A stretch of 64,000 nucleotides of DNA, taken from the UHGV virus genome UHGV-1353888; one strand, written 5' to 3'. The notes beneath the pieces are model-generated. The model saw nothing but the letters and a program-made list of their open reading frames with translations. It did not search any database and was not told the DNA's origin. This document shows positions 3,014 to 62,406 of the stretch, piece by piece. The translations under genes were made by a program, and so were the position numbers. The DNA is from a virus. Position 1 is the first letter of the stretch. Each line of letters opens with the position of its first letter.

Positions 3014-3022
3014 CAGGAGAAG

Positions 3023-3052
3023 CCCCGTCTAGTAGGCGGGGTTTCTTTTTTG
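3023..3052 (+). terminator. Rho-independent terminator, immediately followed by the TTTTGTATGACACA motif
   Basis: Stem CCCCGTC with loop tagta and stem GGCGGGG, then TTTCTTTTTTG. The motif TGTATGACACAAC lies at 3051-3063. Confidence 0.6.
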
Positions 3053-3053
3053 T

Positions 3054-3953
3054 ATGACACAACACAATATTGATAGAATCTATTTCTATGGTATAACTCA
3101 ACAAGACATGGCCATTTCAAAAGCTGAACAACGAAAGAAAGAACGGATAGCCAAGAGCAAGGCCCGAAGGAACCGTGGCATAAAAAAACATGATGTAGAC
3201 AAGAGTGACCTTCGACCCCGGAATTTTCAGGAGCTTATGTACAAGTGGCTCCCCGCTACCCTTGAATTTAATTACAGGGGAGAAGACTTTGATGTATATG
3301 ATTACTACGCCGCAGGAACAAGCGGAGGTGGACAGAACCACCTTGCTATCGGTTCTACAAATGGGGCATTAGAAATCATTGGGTACACCAAGTTCCCAAG
3401 TACCCCCTATGCAGTAAGATGTGTATGTGGTCGAGTAATGAAGCTGAATATTAAGGACTTCAACGAACACCCCCACTGTGGGTGTTTTTTCCGTGCTGTC
3501 CGAACAGCCTACCTGATTCGCACCCGCATTGAAGCAGTTCGCTCCTGGCTGAATAATGTGGGAGACTGGTTACTTGACCTTGAAGTTATCGAGGATTATA
3601 TGGTAGACTTCATTGATAAGTCCCGAGGTCTGGACCAAAGGAAAACCCCCTATGTGAGAAAGTCCCCCGCTGAACCATTCATCAATTTACTTCACGGGAA
3701 AACTGACCCAATGCCGCAGGAATTTCTTGATTTCTTCCTGCTCATTTCTACGACGAAAAGCTATAAAAAGCTCCTTACAGAACTCGTTGATAAGAACAGC
3801 GAATACCCTTTGTGGGAAGCTATTCCTCTTAGCGACATGTCCGAGTATGAGAGGGTGAGCAATTCCCTCCCGGAGTTTGATGCGGCAACCTTTATTAATC
3901 TTATCCACCATCTCAATGAAACAGAAGCTTCCAAGTTTACGGAGGGTAGTTAA
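3054..3953 (+). CDS. Hypothetical Cys-containing protein (start may be the ATG at 3108)
   Basis: 299-aa ORF. The first ATG lies inside the conserved motif, so the ATG at 3108 (MAISKAEQ...) is an alternative start. Contains CVCGRV...HCGC. Confidence 0.5.
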   Translation: MTQHNIDRIYFYGITQQDMAISKAEQRKKERIAKSKARRNRGIKKHDVDKSDLRPRNFQELMYKWLPATLEFNYRGEDFDVYDYYAAGTSGGGQNHLAIGSTNGALEIIGYTKFPSTPYAVRCVCGRVMKLNIKDFNEHPHCGCFFRAVRTAYLIRTRIEAVRSWLNNVGDWLLDLEVIEDYMVDFIDKSRGLDQRKTPYVRKSPAEPFINLLHGKTDPMPQEFLDFFLLISTTKSYKKLLTELVDKNSEYPLWEAIPLSDMSEYERVSNSLPEFDAATFINLIHHLNETEASKFTEGS

Positions 3954-11006: not shown

Positions 11007-11615
11007 ATGTCAAATCAAGTTGTACCCCCTTATCCCAGTGAAGTAACAACCGTTACTCTCGCTCAAGCTCAGGCTGGAATTCAGATTGCGGTTAATCAAC
11101 CTGTTTCTATTACCGGGTTGACCGCCAATACCCGGTATCGAGTCACCTGTATTACCGACAAACACAGTACTATCAAAGTAGCTACCGATGGGTCCACTGT
11201 AGCCGATGGACAGATTAGCGGCATTCCCGCTTACATTTCTCCCGCCGCAACTACGGCCACCATTACTGTAACCACGTTCGCTACTACGGTCGCCACGTTA
11301 ACGGTGGAAGCCGCTCCTATTGCCGCCCCAACAGACGTAACCCTCCCCTCCCTTCTTACCCCCAATGTAAGGTATAAAGTCACTGGTGCCCCCGGTGCCA
11401 ACGTTCCTTTCATACTTTCTTTGAAGGCACCCACCATTGTCTCCCTTTTTGTGTCATACCTTTCCTCTGATGGGAGTGTGGTATTCAGGGATGTTGTCAT
11501 TGGTATGAATGAGTTACGAAATTTAACGAACCTCGGCAAGGGGGACATCCTCCTCTATGTTGATGGAGACAGTCAGGCCGAAGTGAATTTTTCCTTTACA
11601 CCTGCCGCTCCGTAA
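11007..11615 (+). CDS. FN3/Ig-like repeat protein (possible capsid decoration or fiber)
   Basis: Thr/Ala/Val-rich beta protein with FN3-like motifs (ITGLTANTRYRVT, TPNVRYKVTG). Paralogous to the next gene. Confidence 0.45.
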   Translation: MSNQVVPPYPSEVTTVTLAQAQAGIQIAVNQPVSITGLTANTRYRVTCITDKHSTIKVATDGSTVADGQISGIPAYISPAATTATITVTTFATTVATLTVEAAPIAAPTDVTLPSLLTPNVRYKVTGAPGANVPFILSLKAPTIVSLFVSYLSSDGSVVFRDVVIGMNELRNLTNLGKGDILLYVDGDSQAEVNFSFTPAAP

Positions 11616-15003: not shown

Positions 15004-15046
15004 AGCAACCCCGCTTTGTATGACACAGAGCGGGGTTGCTTTTTAT
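15004..15046 (+). terminator. Hairpin terminator with the TTGTATGACACA motif in its loop
   Basis: Perfect 12-bp stem AGCAACCCCGCT/AGCGGGGTTGCT with loop TTGTATGACACAG, then TTTTT. Confidence 0.55.
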
Positions 15047-15069
15047 CTATATTGCATTATCCTCAAACC

Positions 15070-28585: not shown

Positions 28586-31500
28586 ATGGTACAAAAAGGG
28601 CACAGTCTTTACGGGCTGTGTCCTTTTCTCTTTACAAGAGAGGGATTAACCAACATACTATACGCATCTATGCCAAATGACACTAACCAAGAACCCTTGA
28701 CTTATAGGAGTTTCGGACCCAAGAATCCGCAAACTGAATACTATAAGCAGTTGAGGCGAGAACAAAGCCAGACTAGATGGCAGGAAGGAAGACAGGAGAG
28801 AGCGCAGGAAGCCCAGCAGACTCCTCTTTCGGAGGAAGCCAAGTTTCTTGATACACTCAACAAGATCTTCAAACAGGAAGAGGAGGCCAGCTATACTCAG
28901 GAACAGCGAGCCTATACTCAGGAACAAAGGGCTATCTCTGCTGAGGATAGAGGAATCCGTAAGAAAGAAAAGGAGGATTCCAAGAAAGAGAAACAGGCTT
29001 CGAAGCGAGACAAGCAAATCAGAGACTGGCTTTCTGGTATCAATACCCGTACACCTGGAAAGTCTTTGGGCTTTTCTACAGAGGCGGAGTATGAAGACTA
29101 CCTCACCAAAACTAAGCCTGAAACCCTCGTAGACATTACCAAGTTCAAGGCCAACGACCCCGAAGAAATCAGGCGCGCCCGCTCTGCTGTTGAAGAGATG
29201 GGAGCCTCCCTTGTTCTTAGTGGGGAACATCCTCAAGTGGCCGAAGGTTCTTTCCGTAGTCTGGAACCGCAGGATAAAGCCAACAGGCTTCTTTCCAAAT
29301 CCAAGTACGGACTCACCAAAACCGAAGATGGTTCTTATGTGGTAGACGAACGCTTCCTTGCTAGAGTTAATGACCCCTCCACCGCTGGCATGAGGAACGA
29401 GAATATCGCTCGTGCCATTGTAAACAATCTTAAATCCATTATTTCCAAGGAAGATGAAAGAGGCCGCAGTGATTACCTTATCCCCGACGTTGAAGAAGTT
29501 ACCAACCTCGTCAGAAACGCACGAGCAAAGAACAGGGAAACCTACCAAGAGTACGAAAAAATCAGGGAGAGATTCGCAGTACCAAAGGGTGAAGAAGAAC
29601 AAAAGGCTGTAGCCCCTGAAAAGGTGGGGGAGCAAAATGGTGGAGACTCTTCTAGGACTCAACCTACTCTGGTGCAACATGTGCTGAGTGAGGTTGACAG
29701 GTTCTTCACCGTCAACCCGGAAGCTATGGAGTACCTCAACACTCTTGGTGCCAAGACGGATGAGGAAATTCCCGGAGCTATCGAAGACCAAAAGTTTAGA
29801 GAGCAAGCCCGTAGGGGTATTGAACTCAAGGACCAACTGGCTCGTGCTATCTCCGAAGCCAACCCCGCCATCGACCTGAGAACCGTTCGAAATGAACTAG
29901 ACGACGATGCGCTCCTGTACAGGGAAGCGGTCAGCCAGTTCTATGGTGGAGAGATTCCCGAAGAAGTTTCCTCTGCTATCCTCAATCGAACCACACAACT
30001 CGCCCAGCAGAGGCAAGCCCTTGTGGCCAGCGACTATGCCAAGGCCGAGAAGGATGCTATCGCTGAACACCTCAAGTCTCTTGGCTTGGATGAAGGGGTA
30101 GCCCTTAGCATGGGTATATCTGGATTAACCAATCGCCATATCGCTGAGAGTGATACGGGGATGGGTACGATGCGTAGTGCCGTGAACGAAGCACTTCAAC
30201 AGTATCAGTCAGGTGCGGGACAGCTTGCCGCATCCATGAGCTTCGGTGAACAGAAAGGCTATCGAGACCCCCTCTCCCACATGCAGTGGGTGAACATCGG
30301 GGATGGCAAGATGGCTTATGCTTTCGTTGACCCCGGCACAAATGAACGTGTCGGGAATGGGTTCATTGTAGACTTTGGTAACGTAGACCAGCAAGCCAAG
30401 GCTCTTGGTGTTAGTAGGGAAGCCTACCTTGACAACCTCGCTCTTCCCTTCAAGATGGGCAACCTGAACGCAACGGACGAAGCGAACTCCTTGTTCGCTT
30501 GGGACAAGTTGAACGGTAAGCTCGTTGAGAACGCTACGGCGGAAAGCACAGGGGGTCTTGCCTACTACGACAATGACCTTATTGAACGAAGTGTCCTTCG
30601 TGCAGTTGAAGCTGGGGCCCCTGCTGAGGTGGTAGATAAGTACCGGGAGAACCTTCTCCAACTCCAGAAGCAGAATGCCAAGGATATGATTGACCAGATG
30701 CTCGGGCAGTATGAAGCTGTAGCTAATCTTGTGGCTTCTGATAGCAAGACTCTGGACACTCTGTTCCCCGGAATCCGTCTCGCAATGAAGGCAATGCACA
30801 ATGACTTCCGGGATTACTATGCAGAGAACAAGGGAAAGATGACCAACGAGGAAATCATTTCTTCCTTCCTTGCTGACGAGCAGAACCGACAGGGCTTCCT
30901 TGCCATCACTATGGCGGGAGCTAAGACCGTAGCCCGTTACAAGGCCGCGGCTATTGGTGCTTCCCAGTTCGTGAGTGAAGGCTCTCGTATCATAGGCCTT
31001 GGAACCGGAGACCCCGCTAAGTACAACAACATGTGGGAGAACCTTCACAAGGAGGAGCAGGCCATTAACACCATCACTACCCGTGCTGGTGGGGTTGCTG
31101 AATGGGGTGCTGAAATTGGGAACGTCCTGTTGCAGACTGCAGAGACCACAACCACTGGTGGTATCGGTGGGGTTAGCGGAAGAGTTGGTACTATGACTGG
31201 TAGGCTTGCCAAATTATTTGGTGAAGCTGTTGCCCTCAAGGCCGCTACTCCCGGAACCATGCGTCTCGGTCAGGTAATCACGAAGCTCGGTGGCGGGGTT
31301 GAACGTCTGGTCTCCGGACCCGGCAAGTCCGCCCTCACTCAGGCTTCCTCCCGTGGTTCCAGTCTGGCTATCTCTGCCAAGCTCTTCACGGATGCCGCGG
31401 CTCCTACCTTCGGGGAAGTGTCCAACGCAACCTACAATGAAGAGATGGCACGGCTCGCCAAGGACCCGGAAACATCGGGTCTTTCCGAAGCCATCCGTAT

Positions 31501-34500
31501 GGAGATGGCACAGAACGTCGCCACCACCAAGGGAAGTATTGCGGGTATCGGATATGGTATCTTCTCTACTATCCTCAACAACCGCGCTGGTTTCAACCGC
31601 ATGATTCGTAAGGCCACGGGTGCTACCACCAAGGCCCCCGGTGTTTTCGGAAAGCTGGAAAGCTCTCTTGAAGGACCCGGCATCTTCAACCTCAAGGGTC
31701 TTCCTGGGAAGGAAAAGGCTATCTCCATTGCTAAACAAGTTGGTCGTCTCTCCGCCTCCGCCGTTGAAGGTGGCACGGAAGAACTGGCTGATGAAGCTTT
31801 GCAGTGGGCATGGCAGACCCTTACTCAGCATGGAGAAATCCGTGAAGAAGATATTGCCAGCGAGCGGGATGTATGGAATGCCGCCAGCAAGATTTTCATC
31901 CTCGGTGCAATCGGGGGTGAAGTCGGCCACGGGATTCAGGCCATGACTGCCCTGCCTCCGGAAGCTTCCAACCGAAGAGACCAAGCCATCCAGGCTCAGA
32001 CTCTCTACGGAGAAGCCATGAGGAATGCCCTGGATAGCGACGTGGAAGGTGCCAACACTACTCTGATTGAAGCATTGAAGGAAGGTCTTGACAAGAGTTC
32101 TGCCCTTGCTGATGCCGCCATCACGAGTAAGGAAGCCGCCATGTCGGTCGCCCGTAACGGGAACATCCAAGCTGACGAGAATGTCATCAACGAATGGTCC
32201 TCCATGATTAGCCAGTTGCCGGACGGCACTAGTGTTCAACTCAATAACTTCTCTGCTGAATACAGCAGGTTGAATAGGATTGGGGATGAAGCAGGTGCGG
32301 CTTCCCTGCATCAGGCTTTTGTTGAGGACATCGCGGCGAGCGATACCCTTACGGACACCCAGCGTCAGATTGCGGGGGAACTTATCCTACAGCTTACGCA
32401 GGGTACTCCCACCGCTGAGTTCGTGGAAGATGTTTCTACTCAGGTAGTTCTTCCAGAAGGCATTGAAGAGTTGGCCGCAGTTGAAGTAGAAGAAGCCCCC
32501 GCCCCGGTAACGGAAGAACTGAAGCCAGAGGGAGACCTTGTTGAGCAGGAGGTTGAGGAAGAAGTTGTTCAGATTGGGGAACGCGACTACGGGTATAATG
32601 CCCCGAACCCGGTTCCCTTTGTTCAGATGCTTTCCGATTGGTATACCAGTGAGACTCCCATTACCCCTGAGATTCGTGGGGAAATGAACGCCCTGCTTAC
32701 TGACCTTGAGCTTGAAGACCCGGACATCTATGACTTCATCACTGATGGTAAGGAAGATGTGGACCGTGCCACGGTTCGCCGACTTCTCACCGTGGCTAAC
32801 ATGACGGGACCCGATGGCCCCCTCGCTGTTGATATGAAGGGGAACACTGAAATTCAGAAGGGGAATGCCCTGCTGACGGACAAGACGGTATGGAGCAAGT
32901 ATGACAAGGATGTCGAGATACAGGATTCCAACTGGGCCGCAGATGTGTTTAATATGGTGGGCGAAGGAATGCAACCTATTCAAAACGTGCTCGACGATGT
33001 TCTCAATACTGTTCAGGATGAAAGAACCCGGAACAATATTAAAGACATTGTAGAGTTCCTTGAGGAACGTGGAGTTCCGGTGAGCGTGGCTACCATTCAG
33101 GGGGACAGCAACATTGCTGGTCTCACGATGATGGACCCGTCCTCTCCAGAACAGCATATCGCTCTGAACTTTAGCGCGAAGAATGTAAAATCCTCCCCTG
33201 CTGATGTCCTGCTCCACGAACTAACTCACGTTCTGGACAACCATCTGAGGGAGACAGACCCCCTGTATGCAGAACGCGTAGCAAGCATCGAAGAAATTGT
33301 CCGCTCCAACTGGGCCAACATCCAGAAGGAAGCGGAACGGGTGGCTCGCACTGCTGTAACTGAGGAGGAGCAGGCTGAGATTGACCAGTTCATTGCTGAG
33401 ATGGAACAGGCTTTGTTCAATAAGCAGACTGAGTTCGAGGGTGGACGTGAGTTCCTTCCTAATGTAATTACCAACCCCATCATGGGAGAGGTGATTGCAC
33501 AAGGCAATCTCCCGTTTGACCAAGCTCTCGACCAGTGGGCCTCCCCCAACAACCTTGCTCGAATCTCTCAGATTGGCAGAGGCAAGGTGAGCAGGATTGT
33601 TCATAACCTCATTAATGCTGTGTCCTCCATCCTCAAGGGTGCCCAGGTTGTTGAAGGGAAAGTTAATCCCAACGCCGCGGTTATTCGTGTGGAAGAAGGA
33701 ACCCTGGCTGACCCGACAAGGATGAAGATTGTTTCTCCGAAGCTGGCTGAATACAAGCCGGGAGTTGAAGACGAGAACGTATTCATTACGGACCGCGGCG
33801 TTGATGCCGCCCTCTTCTCGTCCTCTGAGAACTTTGTCGGAGCAGGGAAGAGACTATTCCGGACGGCGAATGTCAAGGGTGGATTCACCGCTGACAAACG
33901 TACTGGGAAAAAGGTTAAGGAATTCGCTGGTAACTTCCAGACTTACGTTAATGAACTTGTCGCACGAAACGAACGAACCAAGCGATATGTAACTCAGCAA
34001 ACGAAGGGAATGGAAGACTCCGAACGGGCTACCGTCATCAACTCCATCGTGAACTACACGGGCGATTTGGGCAACACGCTCGACCCGAAGGTTACTCGCC
34101 GTATCTTTGCGGAGACTAACAACAAGGTCGAACAAGCCAGGGTGGCCAGGGAGGCTGAGGTGGACGCGGCGAACAATGAGTACGCCAAGTTCATTGCGGA
34201 CCGGAGGAAGGCTATCATCCAGGCGGAGGCCAGGGTGAACGCCCTTGCCGGGACTCAAGCATTGCAGAATGTTGGAGTAGCTATTACCCAAGCTGTTCAG
34301 GTAGCTAAGGAAGTCCCCCAGGTGGACGAGAAGAACCCGATGGCTGTAGCCGCGGCTCGTTTCAGGAAGGCTCAGGAAGAACTCAACCCCGTGATGAAAG
34401 AGATTTACAGCACGTTGGACGAGGATGCTAAGGCCGAAATGAACGAAGCGTATGATAAGACCATGAAGGCCATTGCGGAAGACTTGGCTCAGGACTTCGA

Positions 34501-37500
34501 CAACCCTGCTGAAATCGTACCGGGCCTTCTCAGTATCGGTGGGCTTCAAAACGTTCCCAGTGTGGACGACTTGTCCGCAATGTTCACTTCGGTCATCAAG
34601 GCCAACAGGCTTGGATGGTTGAAGAAGGATGCCGATGCTGTGCGTGCCGCCAAGGATATAACCATAGCCCAGCAAGCCCGTAGAGAGCGCATAGCCCAAG
34701 CCGAAAAGAACTACCAGACGAAGGTAGGACGAGGAGGCATGAAGAATGGGGTATGGACTTCTCCTGGAACGGTATGGCTTGAGCGTGATGCGGCATTGAC
34801 TGCGGAGAAGAACCGGATGGAAACGGTATACGCCATGAAGAGAAATGAAGCCCGTAAGGAACTTCTCAAATATCCTTTTGGTGCCCGCCTGCTCAATGTG
34901 CTGGATGACAACCGAAGAGCTATTGCTACCATGGAAGCTAACCTGATGCACCGCCGCGGAGCCATTGGCCTCGGAACAAAGGTGAGGGACTTTACCTACC
35001 TTTCCCGAACGTTTGCCGCGGTAGGCAAGGAGTCCATCAACTTCCGTAAGGCTATGATGGAACTACTGGACAGCAACGGCGAAGTGAAGCCGGAGTTTAC
35101 CCACCTTGTAGGTATCCTAAACAATGCAATCCAAAGCTACATGAGAGAAAACATCTCCCGTTACAACCAGGGTATTTCAGAAACCCTCGACAACATGCTT
35201 GCTATGAGCAAGGTGGCTGATGAACTTGGTCTGGACGGTAGTGAATACCTTGGCTTCAAGGGGAAGGACGTATGGAAGAATGTAAGTGAATACCTGACGA
35301 AGGACCCGGCCCTGGCTGAGAGTGCTCTGAACACAATCAACAATGGTCACTGGAACGAGATTGCCAAGATGAAGGATGGCTCGGTTGAACTCCGTCTCAT
35401 TATCAACAAGGCGAGCCAGCTAGATAACCTGCTCGCCTCTGCTGATGGTGGGGAGAAGAGCCGACTCCGTAGCAAGATGCGTAAGGCGAAGGCAGACCTG
35501 ATGAACAAGGCGGCGGAAGACTATGTGCTTTCCAGTATGGGAGTAACCGATACTGACCTCCGCTCCTTCCTCCTCGGTCTAAATTCTCCGGAACAAATCA
35601 CGGAAGCATTCAAATCAACTCCTTACCTGGACTCAAGCGTAATCTCCAACCTGATGGGAACGGACGAAAACCTCCGAACCCGCATCAGCAACACCTTGGA
35701 TTATGTGAGAAAGTCCACCGCTATTGAAATGCAGAAGCAGGGGGTAAACCTGACCGCTAACCAGCGGGACATGTCCCTTCTTGCTGATGGTGAAGTAGCG
35801 GATGCCCTGATAGCTACCGCTCGGAATGTGTTCAAGGAGACCCTATCCAAGGAGCGTAACGAAGAAAACATCTTCGCCAATCGTAAGAACCTGATGGATA
35901 GTGAACTTCAAATTCTTGGAGTTCGCGGATTCAGCAATCTCACGGATGCCTTCGGTGTTATTCAAAACACCCTGTCCTCCCAGGGCAGAGCCTATGTCAA
36001 CCAAGTAATTACGCATGACGTAGCAAGGAGCCTTGAGAGGCACGGGGTTGTTACCGGGGAGAGGACGAAGGAGAATACTCACCTTCTGGAATTCCAGAAC
36101 AAGGCCAACCCGCTGAACGGAATGTACGCAGAAAGGGACATCGCCCTTGTCCTCTACCAAGCCATGCGACCTGACGAAGCAATTATGCGGGGTAAGGAAT
36201 TTGGGAAGAAGTTACAGAGCCATTGGGGTAACAACTGGGGAATGCTGAGAAGCATCGGTGGATTTGTTTCCATGCTGACCCTGGTCCGTACTCCCTCCGC
36301 TACCCTCCGTAACATGGCGGGGACCGTGGGGCAAAGCCTGAACGCAGGTGCTCTCCCGTTTGACAAGGGGGTTATCAAGGGATATGGAGAAGTGTACCAG
36401 CTTGCCCAGGACTTCGTTGTTGCGAACATCCTAAGTTCCGCGGGTTCCGTTGGTGTGAGAGGTGCAGTGAACAGTGAGATTATGGCGAACGCTGAGAAGC
36501 GATTCAACCAGTCCATGCAGAGGTATCGTGACCTGGGCCTGCTCGACGCGGGCGCGGCGAACTTCATGAAGGAACAGTGGAAGCAGGGGCTTAATGAAAT
36601 GAGCCAGAAAGAGGGCAGTGAAATCAGCTTGCCCGACGAGGACGCAATGTTCTCTTCGCTCGTATCGGAACTAGGAGACCGGAGCACTGCAAAGAAAGCG
36701 ATGGACCTCGCCAAGCGCATTGCGTATGGTACGTTCGTTTCGCCTATGAGCGTTGCCGCTTCTGCTTACTCCGTCCCTGACGTTATCGCCAAGATAATCC
36801 TCTTCAATGGGGAGAGCCACAAGGTAAGCAAGGTAGTGAAAGCTGAGCTCGCACAAGCTGAGAAGCTGAGTAGAGCAGGGAAGGAAGACAAGCTGACAAG
36901 CTACATGAAGGACGCTTTGGCCGCTAAGAAGGAGGGGACTCTTACTTCCTACATTGAACGTAGGGCGGCGGACAGGACGAAGAACCTTCTTCCCACGGGT
37001 GCAAGAACTCCTGACTGGGTGAATAAGGTAAGCATCTTTGGGATGCCCTTCTTCTCCTTCATGTACCACACTTGGCAGAGTGTCCCTTACAGCATTGGCT
37101 ATGGGATGGAAGAACTTCGCGCCGCAAGGTTTGCAACCAATACGGCAGATAAAGTCTCCCTCTACATGGATGCCACCCAAAAGTTTGGGGGGGCTATCCT
37201 GGGCCAGTATGCTATGATGGAACTGATGCGGTTTGCCCTTCCGATTGTTACTCAAGCAATCATGGGTATGGTCACGGGTGATGACGAAGAAGACAAGATG
37301 CAGATGCTCGAAGCAAGTTCGTTTACCCGTTGGCTTGCACGGAATGCTGGACTCTCCGCGGACTACGACCAGAACGGAGAACTCTTTTTCTGGTTTGACA
37401 AGGATAATGAAACCTTCATAGTCCAGGATGGTCAGTACCTTCTGCCCTATAAGAGCCTTGGTGAAACCCTGGGTGCTATTATCAACCTTGCTGGATTGAA

Positions 37501-38440
37501 TCCTTTCTCTGACAAGAGTGAGGCTAACCAATTCGAGGATGACTACACCGCCCAGCTTCTGGATTATGTTCAGAGCACGGCTGGCTCTCCCTCCATGTGG
37601 ATTCAAATGCTCATTGATATGGGTTCAAAGGAACCCCGTCAAAGCGCAGACCTGAAACAACTGGGTGGGGTATCAGCAATCCCGGAAGCCTTTGGGAATG
37701 CCCTGCTCATGAGCTTAGGACTCCGCCCTTCTGCTGAACTTGCGGGCGGTAGGACGCTCGACTGGATGGAAAGGATAGCCACGACTGTAAAGGATAACCT
37801 CCCCCTATGGCCTACTCTGGTTCAGGGGGTGCAGACCTGGACAGGAATGAACCCGGATAGTGAAAAGGCAGGGTGGTTGTTGAAGAACCTTGGCTTCGGT
37901 GTTCGTCGCCCCAAGAATATTAATGATGTCCTCCGGGACAGTCTTGCTAAAGGTAACAAGGACCTCTCCAATTCGTTGAAGAACCAGCGCATCATGGATA
38001 CCAACCTTTACACGGCTGACCTTAGCGATGCAGAGTATGACAAGATTATCGAGGCTGATAAGGCTATGGTAATTGAGCAGAGTATTTCCCTCGCTAATAG
38101 GTTCCTGGCGTTGAAGGGGTTCCTCAAGGGGATGGGAGTCAAGGACGTTGACACGGTTCTTGAAGCATCTGCTCAGGAAGCGGGCATATCGTTGAAGGCT
38201 ATGGATGACCTTATCTCTGGCCGGGCCAAAGACTTCATCTCTAACCAGAGGTTTGACAAGATTGAAGAGACGAGAGACCGCTTGCTTAACAGGCCCGGTA
38301 TCACTCCGGAAGCTAAGAAAGCCATCCTCCGCCAGTTCCAACAAGCTGAGAAGGTGTATGACATCGACGCAGTAGATATTACTTCCAGCTTGATTGAGCC
38401 GGATAATGTGGAGCAGGAGGTGAAGAGCCAGAAGAGATAG
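28586..38440 (+). CDS. Giant virion-type protein (3284 aa) with one HExxH zincin-like motif
   Basis: Uninterrupted 9.85-kb ORF. Motif VLLHELTHVLDNH at about 33220. The N-terminus is Lys/Glu-rich. No DxDGD two-barrel RNA-polymerase motif was found by eye. Confidence 0.55.
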   Translation: MVQKGHSLYGLCPFLFTREGLTNILYASMPNDTNQEPLTYRSFGPKNPQTEYYKQLRREQSQTRWQEGRQERAQEAQQTPLSEEAKFLDTLNKIFKQEEEASYTQEQRAYTQEQRAISAEDRGIRKKEKEDSKKEKQASKRDKQIRDWLSGINTRTPGKSLGFSTEAEYEDYLTKTKPETLVDITKFKANDPEEIRRARSAVEEMGASLVLSGEHPQVAEGSFRSLEPQDKANRLLSKSKYGLTKTEDGSYVVDERFLARVNDPSTAGMRNENIARAIVNNLKSIISKEDERGRSDYLIPDVEEVTNLVRNARAKNRETYQEYEKIRERFAVPKGEEEQKAVAPEKVGEQNGGDSSRTQPTLVQHVLSEVDRFFTVNPEAMEYLNTLGAKTDEEIPGAIEDQKFREQARRGIELKDQLARAISEANPAIDLRTVRNELDDDALLYREAVSQFYGGEIPEEVSSAILNRTTQLAQQRQALVASDYAKAEKDAIAEHLKSLGLDEGVALSMGISGLTNRHIAESDTGMGTMRSAVNEALQQYQSGAGQLAASMSFGEQKGYRDPLSHMQWVNIGDGKMAYAFVDPGTNERVGNGFIVDFGNVDQQAKALGVSREAYLDNLALPFKMGNLNATDEANSLFAWDKLNGKLVENATAESTGGLAYYDNDLIERSVLRAVEAGAPAEVVDKYRENLLQLQKQNAKDMIDQMLGQYEAVANLVASDSKTLDTLFPGIRLAMKAMHNDFRDYYAENKGKMTNEEIISSFLADEQNRQGFLAITMAGAKTVARYKAAAIGASQFVSEGSRIIGLGTGDPAKYNNMWENLHKEEQAINTITTRAGGVAEWGAEIGNVLLQTAETTTTGGIGGVSGRVGTMTGRLAKLFGEAVALKAATPGTMRLGQVITKLGGGVERLVSGPGKSALTQASSRGSSLAISAKLFTDAAAPTFGEVSNATYNEEMARLAKDPETSGLSEAIRMEMAQNVATTKGSIAGIGYGIFSTILNNRAGFNRMIRKATGATTKAPGVFGKLESSLEGPGIFNLKGLPGKEKAISIAKQVGRLSASAVEGGTEELADEALQWAWQTLTQHGEIREEDIASERDVWNAASKIFILGAIGGEVGHGIQAMTALPPEASNRRDQAIQAQTLYGEAMRNALDSDVEGANTTLIEALKEGLDKSSALADAAITSKEAAMSVARNGNIQADENVINEWSSMISQLPDGTSVQLNNFSAEYSRLNRIGDEAGAASLHQAFVEDIAASDTLTDTQRQIAGELILQLTQGTPTAEFVEDVSTQVVLPEGIEELAAVEVEEAPAPVTEELKPEGDLVEQEVEEEVVQIGERDYGYNAPNPVPFVQMLSDWYTSETPITPEIRGEMNALLTDLELEDPDIYDFITDGKEDVDRATVRRLLTVANMTGPDGPLAVDMKGNTEIQKGNALLTDKTVWSKYDKDVEIQDSNWAADVFNMVGEGMQPIQNVLDDVLNTVQDERTRNNIKDIVEFLEERGVPVSVATIQGDSNIAGLTMMDPSSPEQHIALNFSAKNVKSSPADVLLHELTHVLDNHLRETDPLYAERVASIEEIVRSNWANIQKEAERVARTAVTEEEQAEIDQFIAEMEQALFNKQTEFEGGREFLPNVITNPIMGEVIAQGNLPFDQALDQWASPNNLARISQIGRGKVSRIVHNLINAVSSILKGAQVVEGKVNPNAAVIRVEEGTLADPTRMKIVSPKLAEYKPGVEDENVFITDRGVDAALFSSSENFVGAGKRLFRTANVKGGFTADKRTGKKVKEFAGNFQTYVNELVARNERTKRYVTQQTKGMEDSERATVINSIVNYTGDLGNTLDPKVTRRIFAETNNKVEQARVAREAEVDAANNEYAKFIADRRKAIIQAEARVNALAGTQALQNVGVAITQAVQVAKEVPQVDEKNPMAVAAARFRKAQEELNPVMKEIYSTLDEDAKAEMNEAYDKTMKAIAEDLAQDFDNPAEIVPGLLSIGGLQNVPSVDDLSAMFTSVIKANRLGWLKKDADAVRAAKDITIAQQARRERIAQAEKNYQTKVGRGGMKNGVWTSPGTVWLERDAALTAEKNRMETVYAMKRNEARKELLKYPFGARLLNVLDDNRRAIATMEANLMHRRGAIGLGTKVRDFTYLSRTFAAVGKESINFRKAMMELLDSNGEVKPEFTHLVGILNNAIQSYMRENISRYNQGISETLDNMLAMSKVADELGLDGSEYLGFKGKDVWKNVSEYLTKDPALAESALNTINNGHWNEIAKMKDGSVELRLIINKASQLDNLLASADGGEKSRLRSKMRKAKADLMNKAAEDYVLSSMGVTDTDLRSFLLGLNSPEQITEAFKSTPYLDSSVISNLMGTDENLRTRISNTLDYVRKSTAIEMQKQGVNLTANQRDMSLLADGEVADALIATARNVFKETLSKERNEENIFANRKNLMDSELQILGVRGFSNLTDAFGVIQNTLSSQGRAYVNQVITHDVARSLERHGVVTGERTKENTHLLEFQNKANPLNGMYAERDIALVLYQAMRPDEAIMRGKEFGKKLQSHWGNNWGMLRSIGGFVSMLTLVRTPSATLRNMAGTVGQSLNAGALPFDKGVIKGYGEVYQLAQDFVVANILSSAGSVGVRGAVNSEIMANAEKRFNQSMQRYRDLGLLDAGAANFMKEQWKQGLNEMSQKEGSEISLPDEDAMFSSLVSELGDRSTAKKAMDLAKRIAYGTFVSPMSVAASAYSVPDVIAKIILFNGESHKVSKVVKAELAQAEKLSRAGKEDKLTSYMKDALAAKKEGTLTSYIERRAADRTKNLLPTGARTPDWVNKVSIFGMPFFSFMYHTWQSVPYSIGYGMEELRAARFATNTADKVSLYMDATQKFGGAILGQYAMMELMRFALPIVTQAIMGMVTGDDEEDKMQMLEASSFTRWLARNAGLSADYDQNGELFFWFDKDNETFIVQDGQYLLPYKSLGETLGAIINLAGLNPFSDKSEANQFEDDYTAQLLDYVQSTAGSPSMWIQMLIDMGSKEPRQSADLKQLGGVSAIPEAFGNALLMSLGLRPSAELAGGRTLDWMERIATTVKDNLPLWPTLVQGVQTWTGMNPDSEKAGWLLKNLGFGVRRPKNINDVLRDSLAKGNKDLSNSLKNQRIMDTNLYTADLSDAEYDKIIEADKAMVIEQSISLANRFLALKGFLKGMGVKDVDTVLEASAQEAGISLKAMDDLISGRAKDFISNQRFDKIEETRDRLLNRPGITPEAKKAILRQFQQAEKVYDIDAVDITSSLIEPDNVEQEVKSQKR

Positions 38441-40406: not shown

Positions 40407-40452
40407 TGTTACTGGACTATAGCAGGGGAGATTAAAATGTAAGGGGTCTCTT

Positions 40453-40498
40453 GTGTCATACAAAATAAAACCCCAGGAACGCGCCAACGTTCCTGGGG
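40453..40498 (-). terminator. Terminator hairpin followed on the - strand by the TTTTATTTTGTATGACACAAG motif (terminator-promoter module)
   Basis: Perfect 11-bp stem CCCCAGGAACG/CGTTCCTGGGG. On the - strand it is followed by TTTTATTTTGTATGACACAAGAG, about 50 nt before the ATG. Confidence 0.55.
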
Positions 40499-40655
40499 TA
40501 GGTGTATTCATGTATTAGCCGCAAAAATTTTAGTGTAACAATTCGTCAACTAGTTCGTAGCAATAGGGGGTATAAAGATGGTTGAACTCAGGTGAGGTGT
40601 TGAGTAAGTGCAGAGGGAAAGGGTTGGGTGGAGCCGATGGATTCAAGAAACTGTT

Positions 40656-42491: not shown

Positions 42492-42851
42492 CTAATCATC
42501 ATTCAATTCTTTTGTTATGATGTCAATGCTTGTTTTGCAGTCAGACAATAATACTTTCTTTTCATCAGCCATTTCCTTGGGAACCTGCGTACCCCGGACC
42601 TTGGCTTCGAGACTAGTAACCCTGTCGAGTATGGAACGAAGGGATTTGATTGCCGCAGGAGTGTCCAGGTTGGCCTTCCACATTTGCTCAGTCTCTGCTA
42701 TCTTAATGACATAGATGAACAGGTCAGACCGGAGGGTGTAGAAATACCGGGCTTGGTTGGCTTGGGATATTACTTCTTCAAGATGGTCCGCATGAAGGGG
42801 GCCAGAAAGAAGAATGGCTATAGCTGATATTAGTGGGGTTGGTTTCTTCAT
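42492..42851 (-). CDS. Small secreted protein with an N-terminal signal peptide
   Basis: MKKPTPLISAIAILLSGPLHA followed by a polar helical domain. ATGA overlap with the upstream gene. Confidence 0.45.
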   Translation of the reverse strand: MKKPTPLISAIAILLSGPLHADHLEEVISQANQARYFYTLRSDLFIYVIKIAETEQMWKANLDTPAAIKSLRSILDRVTSLEAKVRGTQVPKEMADEKKVLLSDCKTSIDIITKELNDD

Positions 42852-43300
42852 TTTCGGTGTGCTTGTAAAATGGCTAGTTCGTGGGATTCAAAGTATGAGG
42901 TATTTACGTGGGAACATATTTCTCCATCAGTGATTTCAGTCCATGCCAACTCATAACCGCGGGCCTTGTCGAGAGCTTCTTCCATTGCTTCTTTGTCTTC
43001 CCCAAACTCACTGGGTTTATCTATGTATTCCTTTGAGTTTCGTATTATCTCAATGGCAGTCCATAAGGAATCAGTGATGGTAAAGTAACGAAGTTCCTGG
43101 TCGAAATCCATCTTTCCAAATCCGCTATAGAGAGCAACTACGTAGTTTCCTGGAAGTCCCGCGGCTCTGGTCAACAGGAAAGTAATCTTCGGTTCGCCTG
43201 GAATGGGGGCCTCTTCTACTTCCTGCTCCAGGCTGGGCTTAAACTGAATGTCTAGTTCAATCATCTTTGAGCAGTGGGGACACGGTATTTGATTTGTCAT
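42848..43300 (-). CDS. Hypothetical protein with an N-terminal CxxC
   Basis: 150 aa; CPHCSKMIELD at the N-terminus. Confidence 0.4.
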   Translation of the reverse strand: MTNQIPCPHCSKMIELDIQFKPSLEQEVEEAPIPGEPKITFLLTRAAGLPGNYVVALYSGFGKMDFDQELRYFTITDSLWTAIEIIRNSKEYIDKPSEFGEDKEAMEEALDKARGYELAWTEITDGEICSHVNTSYFESHELAILQAHRK

Positions 43301-43659
43301 TGTGCTTCCTCCTTTTGTTTGAGTTCTTCCAGGAGAACCTCCTCATTGCCCACCTGTATATTTTGAGTGTTCAGGTTGATAATCTTCCTATGCCCATCAC
43401 CTGTGTAATTTAGTTCAGCCAGATAGATGTCATGTTCGAATAATTGCCATGCTCTTTTCCTCTTTTCATAGGTTCCAAAGATGTCACTAGGCCAGTTGCC
43501 TACATTCTCTCGGTCTTCAACAAGAGAGATAGCTTCCTCCAATGTATTCACAACCGTCAGGTATTCTAGTTTAATAATGCGGCCTACCTCTTTGTAGATG
43601 ACTACACGGAAATAATTACCTGGGGTACGATAGATTGAAAATGTAAGTTGTGGGTTCAT
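43297..43659 (-). CDS. Paralog-family protein, copy 1 (TFxIYRT...FRVxIFKE...TLEEAI family)
   Basis: MNPQLTFSIYRTPGNYFRVVIYKE...NTLEEAISLVEDRENVGNWPSDIFG. 4-nt ATGA overlaps on both sides. Confidence 0.55.
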   Translation of the reverse strand: MNPQLTFSIYRTPGNYFRVVIYKEVGRIIKLEYLTVVNTLEEAISLVEDRENVGNWPSDIFGTYEKRKRAWQLFEHDIYLAELNYTGDGHRKIINLNTQNIQVGNEEVLLEELKQKEEAQ

Positions 43660-44015
43660 TTCTTGCTCAGTTCTCTCTTTTTGAATTCCATGAGAAGGTC
43701 AAACTCTTTTTCATCCATAAGGTTTACGGCGATGTTATAGACTACTCCCCGGCCAGCGTAGATGCAAGCTTCCATGAGAAGTGCCGCGTCATCATTAGGT
43801 ACATTCTTAAAGAAAATCCATCTGTCTTCATCATCATCAAACCCATCGTCTGGTCGTTTCTTGTAGTTATTCCTGTCTTCCGCTACCTGGATAGCTTCCT
43901 CCAGTGTATCAACTACTTCAATATGTTTAGTAAGGAAAACCAGGGTGTCTTCTTTGAAAATACTTACCCTGAACTTGTTCTTTTTGGTTCGGTGAATTGA
44001 AAAAGTTAATATCAT
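43656..44015 (-). CDS. Paralog-family protein, copy 2
   Basis: MILTFSIHRTKKNKFRVSIFKED...VDTLEEAIQVAEDRNNYKKRPDDGFDDDEDRW. Confidence 0.55.
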   Translation of the reverse strand: MILTFSIHRTKKNKFRVSIFKEDTLVFLTKHIEVVDTLEEAIQVAEDRNNYKKRPDDGFDDDEDRWIFFKNVPNDDAALLMEACIYAGRGVVYNIAVNLMDEKEFDLLMEFKKRELSKK

Positions 44016-44368
44016 TTATTCTCTCCTTCCATTTCGGCTTGACATTTCATAAGTAGGGAAAGCTCTTTCCGGTTTACATGGCTCTCGTATAGAGCGTATT
44101 GTATTTCTTTGTTGTGGTCTACATAGCATTCCAAGAGAGCACGGTCATACTCAGTGCGTCTCCAGAATTCACGTCTATCTTCATCCGTTTCAAAGCCGTC
44201 ACTCAGTCGGTTCTTATAATGCTTCCTGTCCTTGGCCAAGGCGATAGCTTCCTCTAGCGTATCAACCACCTCAATGTGTTTGATGGCGAACGAGAGAGCG
44301 TCTTCTTTGAAAACAATGACCTTGAATTTATTATCGTTGGTCCTATAGATTGTAAAAGTTAATTTCAT
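44012..44368 (-). CDS. Paralog-family protein, copy 3
   Basis: MKLTFTIYRTNDNKFKVIVFKED...VDTLEEAIALAKDRKHYKNRLSDGFETDEDRREFW. Confidence 0.55.
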   Translation of the reverse strand: MKLTFTIYRTNDNKFKVIVFKEDALSFAIKHIEVVDTLEEAIALAKDRKHYKNRLSDGFETDEDRREFWRRTEYDRALLECYVDHNKEIQYALYESHVNRKELSLLMKCQAEMEGENK

Positions 44369-44700
44369 TTGTCTAGTAGGGTTTTAAGGAGGGAGTATTC
44401 ATTAGAGTCAAGAAGGTAGTCACCGTAGATTTTATATTCTAAATCCCCTTCGTCATTAATCCAGGTTACTATTAGGGGTGGGTCTGTATTTGTCATCCAG
44501 AAACTATTTCGAGCAGGGTCCGTTTTGAATTTATCATCAGGTTTCTTCTCCAAGCTATCCCATTCTTTCACCAGTTGAACAGCCTGTTTCAAGGTATCAA
44601 ATTCATCAATGTATAGGGGGTAGGACTGATACCTGTCTTCTTCGAAAATAATTACTCGGAAGTTGCCTTCATCAGTTCGTAATATATCGTAGGTTTTCAT
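44365..44700 (-). CDS. Paralog-family protein, copy 4
   Basis: MKTYDILRTDEGNFRVIIFEED...FDTLKQAVQLVKEWDSLEKKPDDKFKTD. Confidence 0.55.
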   Translation of the reverse strand: MKTYDILRTDEGNFRVIIFEEDRYQSYPLYIDEFDTLKQAVQLVKEWDSLEKKPDDKFKTDPARNSFWMTNTDPPLIVTWINDEGDLEYKIYGDYLLDSNEYSLLKTLLDK

Positions 44701-45047
44701 TGGGGTAATTCTTTCTCTATAAATTCAATAAGCTTGGTAAGTTCGTCAGGGTCTACTCTAGACTGATACAGGTTACATGCAATTTGGTTGTCCGTATTCA
44801 CATAAAATTCCAGAAGCTCCACATCTCTGAGTAAACTTCTCCATATGTCTTCCCTTTCATCATCAGATTCATAGCCATCATCCAGCAGGTCCCGATAATC
44901 TTCCCTGTGTCTGGCTATCCATAATGCTTCATCCAAGGTATAGGTTGTTGCCATGTGCTTGACATAGAAGTTCCTACTATCTTCTTTGAAAATAAAAACC
45001 CGGAACCTATTGTTAGGGGTTCTATAAAGGGTGAATGTAATTTTCAT
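44697..45047 (-). CDS. Paralog-family protein, copy 5
   Basis: MKITFTLYRTPNNRFRVFIFKED...YTLDEALWIARHREDYRDLLDDGYESDDEREDIW. Confidence 0.55.
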   Translation of the reverse strand: MKITFTLYRTPNNRFRVFIFKEDSRNFYVKHMATTYTLDEALWIARHREDYRDLLDDGYESDDEREDIWRSLLRDVELLEFYVNTDNQIACNLYQSRVDPDELTKLIEFIEKELPQ

Positions 45048-45382
45048 TTTAAAAAGGCATCTGCAATTTGTTTTCTTTGAGTGAGCTTAACCTCCCGAAT
45101 AGTGAAGCCAAGTCTTTCCTTAAACGTATATACCGTGGAATAGGCCATCTTGTTTTTGCAGGGATAATAAGTAAGAAGCGTTCCCATTCTTGAGACATTA
45201 TCAAAGCCGTCACTCGGCCACTCCTTGTAAGTATCCCTACCCTTAATGAGCGAGATGGCCTCCTCGAACGAATCCATATACTGGACGAGATGGACACAGT
45301 TTCGATGGGTAGCCGTCTCTTCGAACAAGAAAATACTATAGTACGAATCGTCCATTTCGTACAGTTCAAACGTTATGTGCAT
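45044..45382 (-). CDS. Paralog-family protein, copy 6
   Basis: MHITFELYEMDDSYYSIFLFEE...MDSFEEAISLIKGRDTYKEWPSDGFDN. Confidence 0.5.
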   Translation of the reverse strand: MHITFELYEMDDSYYSIFLFEETATHRNCVHLVQYMDSFEEAISLIKGRDTYKEWPSDGFDNVSRMGTLLTYYPCKNKMAYSTVYTFKERLGFTIREVKLTQRKQIADAFLK

Positions 45383-48818: not shown

Positions 48819-48850
48819 TTCTTTTTGTCTTTCTATTTTTGTTTGTAGTT

Positions 48851-49543: not shown

Positions 49544-49665
49544 TTTCTTTTGTCTTTCTATTTGTTGTGCCGGACGTTTTGGCCTCCGGCTCGCCTTACA
49601 TGAACAGTTATACCATAGGAGCGGGGAAAAACAAGACTAATCTTTTTTGTCTTGTGTCATACACC
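49544..49665 (-). promoter_or_regulatory. Repeated promoter-leader module, copy F (divergent)
   Basis: Contains CTTGTGTCATAC (the - strand reads GTATGACACAAG) about 115 nt upstream of the ATG, plus the leader AAATAGAAAGACAAAAGAAAATG. Confidence 0.45.
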
Positions 49666-50476: not shown

Positions 50477-50637
50477 TTTTCTATGTTTTCTATTTTAGTT
50501 TGTTGGTTGGTTGCGGGGTTGTGTTCCCCTTACGCAATCCTTTATATTATATTAGAGGGGAAACGCAAGGGAAATGTTCATGCCTTGTGTCATACTTAAC
50601 TGTTAAGGAGTTATGAAAATGTTCCACGTGGAACATT
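50477..50637 (-). promoter_or_regulatory. Repeated promoter-leader module, copy A
   Basis: Perfect 22-bp palindrome AAATGTTCCACGTGGAACATTT, then GTATGACACAAGG, then a TGCGTAAGGGGAACACAACCCC-type leader. Confidence 0.5.
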
Positions 50638-51376: not shown

Positions 51377-51381
51377 GTTTT

Positions 51382-51798: not shown

Positions 51799-51803
51799 AA
51801 ATG

Positions 51804-52004: not shown

Positions 52005-52125
52005 TTTCTTATGTCTTTCTAATTTTTGTTGTTATTACGGGGTTGTGTCTCCCTTACGCATTTCTTTATACCATTTTTGAGAGAGGATGCAAGGAGAAAT
52101 GTTGAAACCTTGTGTCATACAGAAG
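52005..52125 (-). promoter_or_regulatory. Repeated promoter-leader module, copy B
   Basis: CCTTGTGTCATAC at 52108-52120 (overlaps the upstream stop codon). Leader GCGTAAGGGAGACACAACCCC...AGAAAGACATAAGAAAATG. Confidence 0.5.
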
Positions 52126-52581: not shown

Positions 52582-52599
52582 TATTTTAGGTCTTTCTAA

Positions 52600-52929: not shown

Positions 52930-53039
52930 TTTTCTATTTTATGTTGGAGAAATGCCCCTTACGCAATCCTTTATATAATATTAGAGGGATTATGCAAGGA
53001 AAATGTTCATGGCTTGTGTCATACTTAACTGTTAAGGAG
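52930..53039 (-). promoter_or_regulatory. Repeated promoter-leader module, copy C
   Basis: A roughly 100-bp stretch nearly identical to copy A: ATGTTCATGNCTTGTGTCATACTTAACTGTTAAGGAGTTATGAA. Confidence 0.5.
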
Positions 53040-53378: not shown

Positions 53379-53392
53379 TTTCGTATTCCTTT

Positions 53393-53704: not shown

Positions 53705-53756
53705 TTTTCTTTAAGATTGCGGACGGGAGAACCATTATCTCCCGCCCTAATTGTTA

Positions 53757-54150: not shown

Positions 54151-54263
54151 GATATTGTATATTTTTATTAGTTGTTGTGCCCCCTTCTTGGGAGAACAAG
54201 GTCAATTTAGCATAGGGCACATGTTATGCAAGAAAAAACTTCATCATTTTTGTCATACTAGCT
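54151..54263 (-). promoter_or_regulatory. Repeated promoter-leader module, copy E (degenerate)
   Basis: TTTTTGTCATACTAGC variant about 100 nt upstream of the ATG at 54150. Confidence 0.4.
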
Positions 54264-54536: not shown

Positions 54537-54573
54537 TTTCTTATGTATTTCTAATTTAATCTGTTATAAATAT

Positions 54574-55388: not shown

Positions 55389-55534
55389 TTTCTTGTATCT
55401 TTCTATTTTAGTTCGTTGCTTGGTTGGTTGTAGGGTTGTGTTCCCCTTACGCATTCTTTATAGCATCTTTGAGCAGGGGAGCAAGCTTTTTCTTTTAGGC
55501 TTGTGTCATACAAAATTGTCCCACGTGGAACTTT
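55389..55534 (-). promoter_or_regulatory. Repeated promoter-leader module, copy D
   Basis: Near-palindrome GTTCCACGTGGGAC, then AATTTTGTATGACACAAGCC, then the leader GCGTAAGGGGAACACAACCCTAC...AAATAGAAAGATACAAGAAAATG. Confidence 0.5.
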
Positions 55535-62257: not shown

Positions 62258-62406
62258 TCTTTTCTATTCGATAGTGTTAGCCCCAGGTAGCCCGTGTTGG
62301 TTGCCTGGGGCCTTTTTGTATACGCATAGGTTTATGCGTATATAGTATGACAAAAAGGATGGAGATTGTTCTTGAAATAAGTTTGCCACAGTGGTAGGGT
62401 CTGTTC

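Follow-up and report, generated by a model that had tools for sequence, protein, structure and literature searches.

A helically phased 10-mer upstream of sigma-70-like promoters in an uncultivated phage: a probable protein-binding element within PeSL-like cassettes

Short, specific sites upstream of the -35 hexamer are found at the late promoters of P2 and P4, where Ogr/Delta sites (TGT-N12-ACA) lie near -55, and at class I CRP-dependent promoters, where CRP sites are placed at -61.5, -71.5 and so on. Promoters of the rrnB P1 type are built from factor sites, an A-tract UP element, the -35, a 16-bp spacer and the -10, and the marbox recognised by MarA, SoxS and Rob is an asymmetric site for a monomeric activator that is functional in both orientations, according to how far it lies from the -35. 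Phages provide a further model in the promoter-early stem-loops (PeSLs) of T4-type myoviruses (Arbiol et al. 2010, PMC2839356; Comeau et al. 2014, PMC4122927). The subject here is a conserved 10-mer, GTATGACACA, which recurs in a 64,000-nt stretch (the window) of the virus genome UHGV-1353888, an uncultivated phage of ~71 kb that stems from Logan ERR10101783 and whose 7.3-kb replication module lies outside the window. The 10-mer is probably not itself a promoter but a protein-docking site upstream of sigma-70-like promoters; it is read here, with moderate confidence, as an orientation-independent, helically phased upstream promoter element and probable protein-binding site carried in PeSL-like cassettes.

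The motif is enriched in the window: nine exact matches and five matches with one mismatch to GTATGACACA are present, compared with 2.5 expected at up to one mismatch, and 14 or more such copies were obtained in none of 100 shuffles. Exact GTATGACA(C/A)A occurs nine times, against ~0.1 expected. A longer 14-mer, TTTTGTATGACACA, is found exactly at 3048-3061 (+), 40452-40465 (-), and 55502-55515 (-), and with one mismatch at 15014-15027 (+); its informative core is GTATGACACA, and the recognition element is accordingly written GTATGACA(C/A)A(G). Ten copies are located between genes or at the 3′ edge of a gene, three on the + strand (3052, 15018, 62345) and seven on the - strand (40452, 49653, 50586, 52111, 53015, 54249, 55502). 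One-mismatch copies in coding DNA (18684, 22905, 23277) do not exceed the chance level.

A check for bias in orientation and position gave a clear result, with all ten intergenic copies pointing in the direction of the next gene and keeping fixed distances to a core promoter. Measured from the end of the motif, the ATG follows after 42-52 nt at 3052, 15018, 40452, and 62345 (52-62 nt from the motif start), whereas the six copies of the - strand arm (49653-55502) have their start codon 85-109 nt past the motif end (95-119 nt from its start; the offset for the 55502 copy is counted to ATG 55388). The motif-to-ATG distance thus falls into two classes. A preliminary description of this DNA, made from the sequence alone, had placed an ATG within about 45-55 nt of each copy, which is right for the four sites it considered but not for the six copies of the - strand arm.

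The sites and the elements around them are as follows, with class A and class B denoting gaps of 8-9 and 17-18 bp, respectively, between motif and -35.

3017..3051 (+): terminator-like hairpin (stem 3023-3030/3034-3041) with a T-tract running into the motif
3052..3061 (+): motif GTATGACACA, class A, 8-nt gap to the -35
3070..3097 (+): core promoter TTGATA-16-tggTATAAC; ATG 3108, leader of ~3-4 nt
15004..15044 (+): terminator hairpin of 16 pairs with loop ATGAC, then TTTTT; includes the motif at 15018-15027
15036..15063 (+): core promoter TTGCTT-16-TATCCT, the weakest of the set, class A geometry; ATG 15070 effectively leaderless
40462..40499 (-): terminator hairpin (40499-40470, 13 pairs) and TTTATTTT, directly upstream of the motif
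40452..40461 (-): motif GTATGACACA, class A, 9-nt gap
40416..40442 (-): core promoter TTACAT-15-tgcTATAGT; ATG 40406
49653..49662 (-): motif, class B, within the 3′ end of the upstream open reading frame (ORF)
49607..49634 (-): core promoter TTGTTT-16-tggTATAAC upstream of a GNAT gene (ATG 49543)
50506..50634 (-): full cassette, with palindrome GTTCCACGTGGAAC at 50621-50634, motif at 50586-50595 and TTGCGT-16-TATAAA at 50541-50568
50506-50536 (-): conserved leader TGCGTAAGGGGAACACAACCCCGC of the 50586 cassette
52030..52120 (-): full cassette, with motif at 52111-52120 (overlapping the stop codon of the upstream Zn-ribbon ORF), TTGCAT-16-tggTATAAA at 52065-52092 and conserved leader at 52030-52060
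52935..53024 (-): full cassette, with motif at 53015-53024, TTGCAT-16-TATAAA at 52970-52997 and leader at 52935-52965
54204..54258 (-): motif GTATGACAAA at 54249-54258 and TTGCAT-16-tgcTAAATT at 54204-54231
55423..55531 (-): full cassette, with palindrome at 55518-55531, motif at 55502-55511, TTGCTC-16-tgcTATAAA at 55457-55484 and leader at 55423-55453
62280..62343 (+): hairpin (62280-62311) with T-tract, degenerate motif GTATACGCA at 62318-62326 and second hairpin at 62319-62343
62345..62354 (+): motif GTATGACAAA, class B, 17-nt gap
62372..62400 (+): core promoter TTGAAA-17-tggTAGGGT; leaderless ATG 62407 starts a 56-aa Zn-ribbon ORF (62407-62577)
11450..11459 (-): exact motif copy antisense within gene 11007-11615, with no downstream promoter and no counterpart in relatives; probably non-functional

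Each of the ten co-oriented copies is followed by a TTGnnn hexamer, a spacer of 15-17 bp, and a TAnnnN hexamer that is mostly TGn-extended. Promoters of the housekeeping sigma factor have a TTGACA-like -35, in which TTG is best conserved, a spacer of 16-18 bp, and a TATAAT-like -10 with A as its second and T as its sixth base. The spacer is 16 bp at eight sites, 17 bp at one, and 15 bp at one; TTG is present in the -35 at nine (40452, with TTACAT, being the exception), TA occupies the first two -10 positions at all ten, the TGn extension precedes the -10 at seven, and T is found at the sixth -10 position at four (TATAGT, TAAATT, TAGGGT, TATCCT). Scored with a simple hexamer measure, the downstream DNA reaches a mean of 8.65, compared with 5.19 at random positions, a value matched by none of 20,000 resampled sets of ten positions. 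The three class A sites have 8-9 bp between motif and -35, and the seven class B sites have 17-18 bp. The -10 begins exactly 40 nt from the start of the motif at 3052, 15018, and 40452, whose flanks are otherwise unrelated, and 49-50 nt from it at the other seven. At the class A promoters and at 62345, the ATG lies 6-10 nt after the -10, and these mRNAs are therefore predicted to be leaderless or nearly so; leaderless genes in the window begin at 3108, 15070, 16471, 38510, 40406, and 62407.

The phage also possesses promoters without the motif, of the form TTGACA/TTGACT/TTGACC-N16-18-TAnnnT, at 4372, 16436, ~38470, ~42206, 45726, and ~58786. These are near consensus, whereas the motif-bearing promoters have weak -35 hexamers (TTGCAT, TTGCGT, TTGCTC, TTGTTT, TTACAT), which suggests that the latter depend on an activator. 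Motif-less promoters in this phage, together with the bare TTGACA promoter that relatives have at the position of 3052, indicate that the promoters are of host type and that the 10-mer is an extra upstream module.

Comparison with relatives separates the 10-mer from its surroundings. In contigs 138114 and 157058, with 76% TerL identity, the promoter orthologous to 54249 retains GTATGACACA without a change and, after a gap that is still 17 nt long but has diverged in sequence, TTGCGT; 27 nt upstream of a TTGACA there is a second copy (GTATGACAAT), and the other early promoters have no motif. The equivalent of 3052 in these relatives is TTGACA-16-TATTTT-6 nt-ATG, with neither motif nor terminator. 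In two motif-less early promoters of contig 157058 (L164 12797-12889 and 15304-15384), the -35 context reads GTATTGACA(C/A), that is, the 10-mer plus one T, which could be a coincidence or a clue to the origin of the motif.

In a more distant clade, at ~60% TerL identity, the same 10-mer is found upstream of nearly every early promoter, but inverted. In gene orientation these promoters read T(T/G)TGTCATAC, 13-16 nt with AAAAAA (or 27 nt), TTGACA, a 16/17 spacer and (TGn)TAAAYT, continuing with a 5′ hairpin and then AATAGAAAGA...ATG; the consensus is TKTGTCATAC-N5-AAAAAA-N4-TTGACA-16/17-TAAAYT. An alignment of 13 cassettes contains as invariant blocks the inverted motif TGTCATAC, AAAAA, TTGACAA, AAATC, and the -10 (TAAACT, TAAATT or TAAAAT), while the sequence between motif and A-tract varies freely. 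The first early promoter of this clade has forward-oriented copies farther upstream: L176 and L186 carry a tandem array with a 33-nt period, made of two to three GTATGACGCA copies ending in GTATGACACA, to which L176 adds GTATGATGCA. The forward clades therefore show gaps of 8-9, 17-18, and 27 bp between motif and -35, and the inverted clade shows gaps of 13-16 and 27 bp. Between clades of 60-76% TerL identity the 10-mer does not vary, even though the adjoining gap sequence is hypervariable, and few early proteins are common to the clades. An IMG/VR-wide scan for the class B arrangement (motif-N14-16-CTTGC) returned this clade and four chance matches in coding regions, and a 15-mer scan of IMG/VR gave chance matches only.

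Taken with the -10 hexamer as -12 to -7, and hence with predicted start sites, the motif is centred near -47 in class A, near -57 in class B, and near -67 in a relative. These positions are about one turn apart and so lie on the same face of the helix. Association with promoters, use in either orientation, and phased positions together point to a protein site acting on RNA polymerase, rather than to a polymerase promoter, an RNA signal or part of a terminator.

The preliminary description had instead taken the motif for a self-contained phage-specific promoter, possibly read by a phage-encoded or host-modified polymerase. Two of its observations hold, namely that the motif does not match the sigma-70 consensus, the 10-mer itself being no sigma-70 hexamer pair, and that the motif is associated with promoters, since a sigma-70-type core promoter lies downstream of all ten copies. 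The same core promoters, standing between the motif and every start codon, argue against the motif being self-contained, and the polymerase idea finds no match to an RNA polymerase, sigma factor or helix-turn-helix (HTH) protein among the ~70 proteins scanned with Pfam and/or PHROGs, including those of the 7.3-kb replication module (in L001). What these searches did identify were a terminase, a VapE/D5 primase-helicase, a family A DNA polymerase, an SNF2 helicase, a PD-(D/E)XK nuclease, HNH/NUMOD4 endonucleases, a GNAT protein, and a nucleotide-kinase-like domain.

An autonomous promoter at which a phage or virion RNA polymerase (vRNAP) starts at or just past the motif nevertheless deserves consideration, as the motif is asymmetric and more conserved than the hexamers, and a 3284-aa orphan ORF (28586-38440, +) at the end of the structural module occupies the position of the vRNAP in N4-like phages. 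The gene order of TerL, portal-sized ORF, capsid-sized ORF, and giant protein recalls those phages too, with the portal and capsid roles assigned from ORF size in the absence of homology matches. The TGACAC hexamer of the motif is presumably also present in the SP6 promoter, a superficial likeness. This explanation is nonetheless highly improbable. No RNA polymerase was detected by Pfam, PHROGs or PDB sequence search, and the giant protein contains no DxDxD or T7-type motifs, has no Pfam, PHROG or PDB match, and has only seven close homologues, all unannotated (49%-98% identity). The distance to the ATG falls into the two classes described, sigma-70-like hexamers are present at every site, and a 10-mer that the ~60% TerL clade carries in the opposite orientation to its genes is not a directional polymerase promoter. 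The conserved word is, moreover, only 10-12 bp in length, compared with ~20 bp in promoters of the T7/SP6 type.

The hairpins that accompany many copies raise a different possibility. Hairpins lie upstream of 3052, 15018, 40452, 62345, 50586, 52111, and 55502, those of terminator type having stems of 8-16 bp and T-tracts; among the six copies of the - strand arm (49653-55502) any upstream hairpin is weak, and none was found at 49653, 53015, and 54249. The hairpins and T-tracts reported beside the motif at 3052 (+) and 40452 (-) are real, as are the variants reported after a hairpin near 62321-62355, where GTATGACAAA at 62345 stands behind two hairpins. At 15014-15027 the hairpin exists, with 16 pairs, but the motif does not form its loop as a whole: the ends of the motif are paired and the loop is the 5-nt ATGAC. 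The terminator-promoter coupling seen in the preliminary description is thus valid for 3052, 15018, 40452, and 62345, but is peculiar to this phage and does not extend to the ~60% TerL clade, in which no terminator hairpins were found upstream of the motif copies. Were the motif a terminator accessory, whereby sequence just 3′ of the T-tract tunes termination efficiency, its abutting the T-tract at 3052, 40452, and 55502 and its place within the hairpin at 15018 would be explained. Such a role is extremely unlikely, however, given the three sites without a hairpin, the variable distance at 50586, and the hairpin-free copies of the ~60% TerL clade, where inversion would in addition destroy a strand-specific RNA or termination signal. 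Retention of the motif at promoters without terminators indicates that it belongs to the promoters.

Class B promoters continue into a conserved leader. In four of them this reads TGCGTAAGGGGAACACAACCCC and carries a small 5′ hairpin; the initiation region that comes next, AAAATAGAAAGAcAtAAGAAA-ATG, is A-rich and has no Shine-Dalgarno sequence. In this phage, hairpin, motif, promoter, and leader thus form a repeated unit of ~100-130 nt, and the corresponding repeat families (D5 and D11-D13, the 53015/50586 pair being D11) were confirmed. Four cassettes, at 50586, 52111, 53015, and 55502, are evidently paralogous, with an identity of up to 92% over 92 nt, the figure reached by the 53015 and 50586 cassettes. 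By contrast, apart from the 10-mer and the hexamers, the class A sites and 49653 have nothing in common with the class B cassettes.

Cassette edges coincide with breaks in homology between close relatives. Against IMG/VR contig 3300045988_146009, a ~99% relative of the window that is 97%-99% identical elsewhere, homology breaks at 50616 and 52120, the two junctions examined, and both are upstream edges of cassettes. The module between them is only 84.6% identical to that contig, in which the next 2.7 kb, containing two cassettes, is replaced by 0.37 kb. Early gene order is also shuffled in comparison with contig 157058.

Given this plasticity, the 10-mer might be a passive margin, functionless in itself, of a promoter cassette that duplication or recombination has spread, its copies being young or gene-converted. 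The paralogy of the four cassettes, the breaks at cassette edges, and the resemblance to GTATTGACA(C/A) minus one T, as in a decayed -35, are all in keeping with such a history. It is, however, unlikely: the class A sites and 49653 have only the 10-mer and hexamers in common with class B, the 10-mer is exact across clades of 60%-76% TerL identity despite a hypervariable gap and is inverted at the same distance in one of them, and a decaying remnant would neither remain exact nor hold helical phasing.

A more active role in rearrangement would be that of a recombination or homing site, used by a site-specific recombinase or an HNH/NUMOD4 endonuclease that moves promoter-gene cassettes in an integron-like manner. 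The junction with contig 146009 at 52120 coincides precisely with the motif edge, the copies of each arm are all direct repeats, early modules are shuffled between relatives, and an HNH/NUMOD4 gene (55535-56218) adjoins the 55502 copy, with another in the replication module. The other junction, at 50616, lies 21 nt upstream of the motif, as homologous exchange over a ~100-nt cassette predicts, no recombinase or integrase was found, and the tandem array upstream of a promoter in L176 and L186 resembles operator or upstream activating sequence sites. As the strict, phased distance to the -35 and -10 would also be left unexplained, this role appears quite improbable.

Several further features of the cassettes and their neighbourhood may be recorded here. 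Two motif-bearing promoters have, immediately upstream, a perfect palindrome of 14 bp, GTTCCACGTGGAAC (50621-50634 and 55518-55531), which is also kept in the control regions of distant relatives (L176 6484, L180 6669, L186 3170, L177 2368, and L004 1560); it is probably a second protein-binding site, for a dimeric binder. Genes resembling HNH_3/NUMOD4 homing endonucleases are located at 55535-56218 (-), directly adjoining the 55502 cassette, and at L001 5104-5844, in the replication module. The gene after the 54249 promoter (53757-54150, -) looks frameshifted, ATG 54150 opening only 41 codons and a second frame running from 54116 to 53757; its orthologue in L164 (6583-7062) is a single intact ORF, and the frameshift may represent an assembly error, a pseudogene or programmed frameshifting. 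Farther along the - strand, seven tandem paralogous genes of ~111-150 aa occupy 42848-45382, with N termini like MKLTFTIYRT..F(K/R)V..FKE; the stretch 43673-44672 is missing from contig 146009, and the family is possibly related to another (TYRVYED..G.LH.AIY) that is expanded in contig 157058.

Repeats are also a feature of the region where the two transcription directions diverge. Between the - strand early arm and the + strand primase gene lies a control region of ~2 kb (56840-58890) that has no convincing ORFs but many direct repeats, an AT-rich block at 58240-58400, and one or more copies of the palindrome tttacatttttgtaaaa; control regions of relatives contain tandem iterons and a DnaA-box-like cTATCCACA, and the region is likely a replication origin or regulatory hub. 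The 10-mer could accordingly be imagined as an iteron, bound by the primase-helicase or another initiator so as to couple transcription to replication, since the 33-nt-period array of L176 and L186 sits in a repeat-rich control region beside the primase gene and a VapE/D5-type primase-helicase is adjacent. In the window, however, the control region (56400-58950) is without a copy even at two mismatches, while copies are spread over promoters across 60 kb at a fixed distance to the -35, and an iteron function is very unlikely.

Other identities of the motif were tried and rejected. Its ATGACA does not serve as a -35, there being no -10 at 16-18 nt, and its ATG is not a start codon, as the resulting peptides are 4-25 aa in length and unconserved except in the 3054 frame. 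DnaA-box, IHF, Fis, CRP, and NtcA consensus sequences did not fit on inspection, nor did Bacteroidota -33/-7 promoters (TTTG/TAnnTTTG). Archaeal TATA/BRE elements are contradicted by the bacterial-type hexamers and hairpin terminators, and an antisense promoter on the other strand of the inverted copies is inconsistent.

Under the favoured interpretation of an upstream promoter element, GTATGACA(C/A)A(G) would be a sequence-specific protein-recognition element upstream of promoters read by host RNA polymerase. A putative DNA-binding protein, either host- or phage-encoded, would dock on the 10-mer and modulate the polymerase, most likely by recruiting it through upstream contact in the manner of a class I activator, with shut-off also possible. 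The 10-mer would form the upstream edge of a composite cassette of terminator or short hairpin, motif, promoter, 5′-hairpin leader, and A-rich, non-Shine-Dalgarno initiation region. This cassette appears to have been multiplied among small early genes, where it may act as recombination homology for the shuffling of gene modules, as PeSLs do in T4-type phages. The small number of early proteins common to the clades speaks for a host factor, a product of the conserved core or a protein delivered with the virion.

A number of points weigh against this interpretation. The strongly conserved T at the end of the -10 hexamer is replaced by A or C at six of the ten sites (TATAAA, TATAAC), and because four class B cassettes are paralogues, the ten sites amount to ~7 independent observations; the sites were, in addition, chosen by the motif, and its invariance within the window is thus partly by construction. 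The motif-bearing promoters of the ~60% TerL clade already possess a perfect TTGACA and an A-tract, such that an activator seems needless there and a modulator or repressor is favoured. No HTH protein, sigma factor or activator emerged as a candidate binder from the phage proteins in Pfam and PHROGs. As to the host, a TerL profile had no match in 185k species genomes, and a genome-wide pattern for the cassette of the ~60% TerL clade gave 12 scattered, chance-level matches that named no host.

Searches beyond the lineage were similarly unproductive. Megablast and TerL tblastn against INPHARED returned no match, TerL matched only unnamed metagenome proteins, and the primase matched only itself; a metagenome scan for the conserved -35/-10/leader gave no matches, and a literature search for the 10-mer string found unrelated primers only. 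Rfam recognised no family in the whole window, which contains no tRNAs. Almost no gene has a Shine-Dalgarno sequence, many being preceded instead by A-rich AAAATAGAAAGAcAtAAGAAA-ATG (for example, at 48819-48848, 49541-49560, 52002-52021, and 55386-55405), which, in combination with canonical -35/-10 hexamers, points to an unusual host.

A bolder variant would make the 10-mer a docking site for a phage-borne factor that licenses host RNA polymerase in a host not relying on Shine-Dalgarno initiation, with the site perhaps doubling as an integron-like crossover point. It seems rather a long shot; the factor could be a virion-delivered protein, possibly a domain of the 3284-aa protein, or a small Zn-ribbon early protein. 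Small CxxC...CxxC zinc-ribbon proteins are encoded at 62407-62577 (+), 52115-52324 (-), 49637-50476 (-, N terminus), and 62620-62853 (+), and none of them has a significant Pfam match. Two are tied to cassettes, the 56-aa ORF under the 62345 promoter and a 69-aa ORF whose stop codon lies inside the 52111 motif, and these proteins are candidate regulators.

The arrangement supplies a concrete, testable promoter grammar for an uncultivated phage lineage without INPHARED relatives, consisting of an upstream 10-mer, optional A-tract, -35, 16-bp spacer, extended -10, 5′-hairpin leader, and A-rich initiation region without Shine-Dalgarno sequence. It shows that a short upstream element can outlast the early genes it serves, in either orientation; the cassette could be used to annotate early regions of related metagenomic contigs, and the binder, once identified, could reveal the host or a new phage transcription factor.

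Among known systems, the promoters of T7/SP6 and of the N4 vRNAP resemble the present sites in having a phage-specific conserved word beside hairpins. Unlike the T7/SP6 case, no polymerase gene was found here, the orientation is not fixed, and the distance to the gene is variable, with sigma-70-like hexamers downstream; and unlike those of the N4 vRNAP, the hairpins are terminator-like or absent rather than 5-7-bp stems with a 3-nt loop. Ogr/Delta and class I CRP sites are closer parallels, being short, specific sites upstream of the -35 at positions about one helical turn apart, and in this phage the 10-mer likewise goes with weak -35 hexamers. The 10-mer differs from them in its unrelated, asymmetric sequence, no Ogr-like or other activator was found among the phage proteins, and promoters of the ~60% TerL clade are already near consensus. 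In that clade a separate A-tract lies between 10-mer and -35, and the consensus with its extra upstream copies parallels the phased Fis sites and UP element of rrnB P1, yet the 10-mer fits neither the Fis nor the UP consensus: it is a specific sequence of 40% G+C that does not match the A/T-rich UP element. The marbox offers an analogy for orientation independence only, with no relationship in sequence or protein.

PeSLs, which belong to T4-type myoviruses and are excised there as mini-circles, are the most instructive comparison. Both they and the cassettes described here are units of a stem-loop (terminator) and a sigma-70-type early promoter, both recur among the small ORFs of a hyperplastic region, and both are found at insertion, deletion or replacement junctions between close relatives. 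The present phage, however, is not T4-like, at ~71 kb and with no INPHARED match, and its cassettes contain a third conserved module, the 10-mer, between the hairpin and the -35, which persists, inverted, in relatives that have no stem-loop. A conserved 5′ leader and a non-Shine-Dalgarno initiation region also belong to the unit here. The concept developed for PeSLs, of regulatory cassettes serving as recombination handles for gene shuffling, may thus extend beyond T4-type phages.

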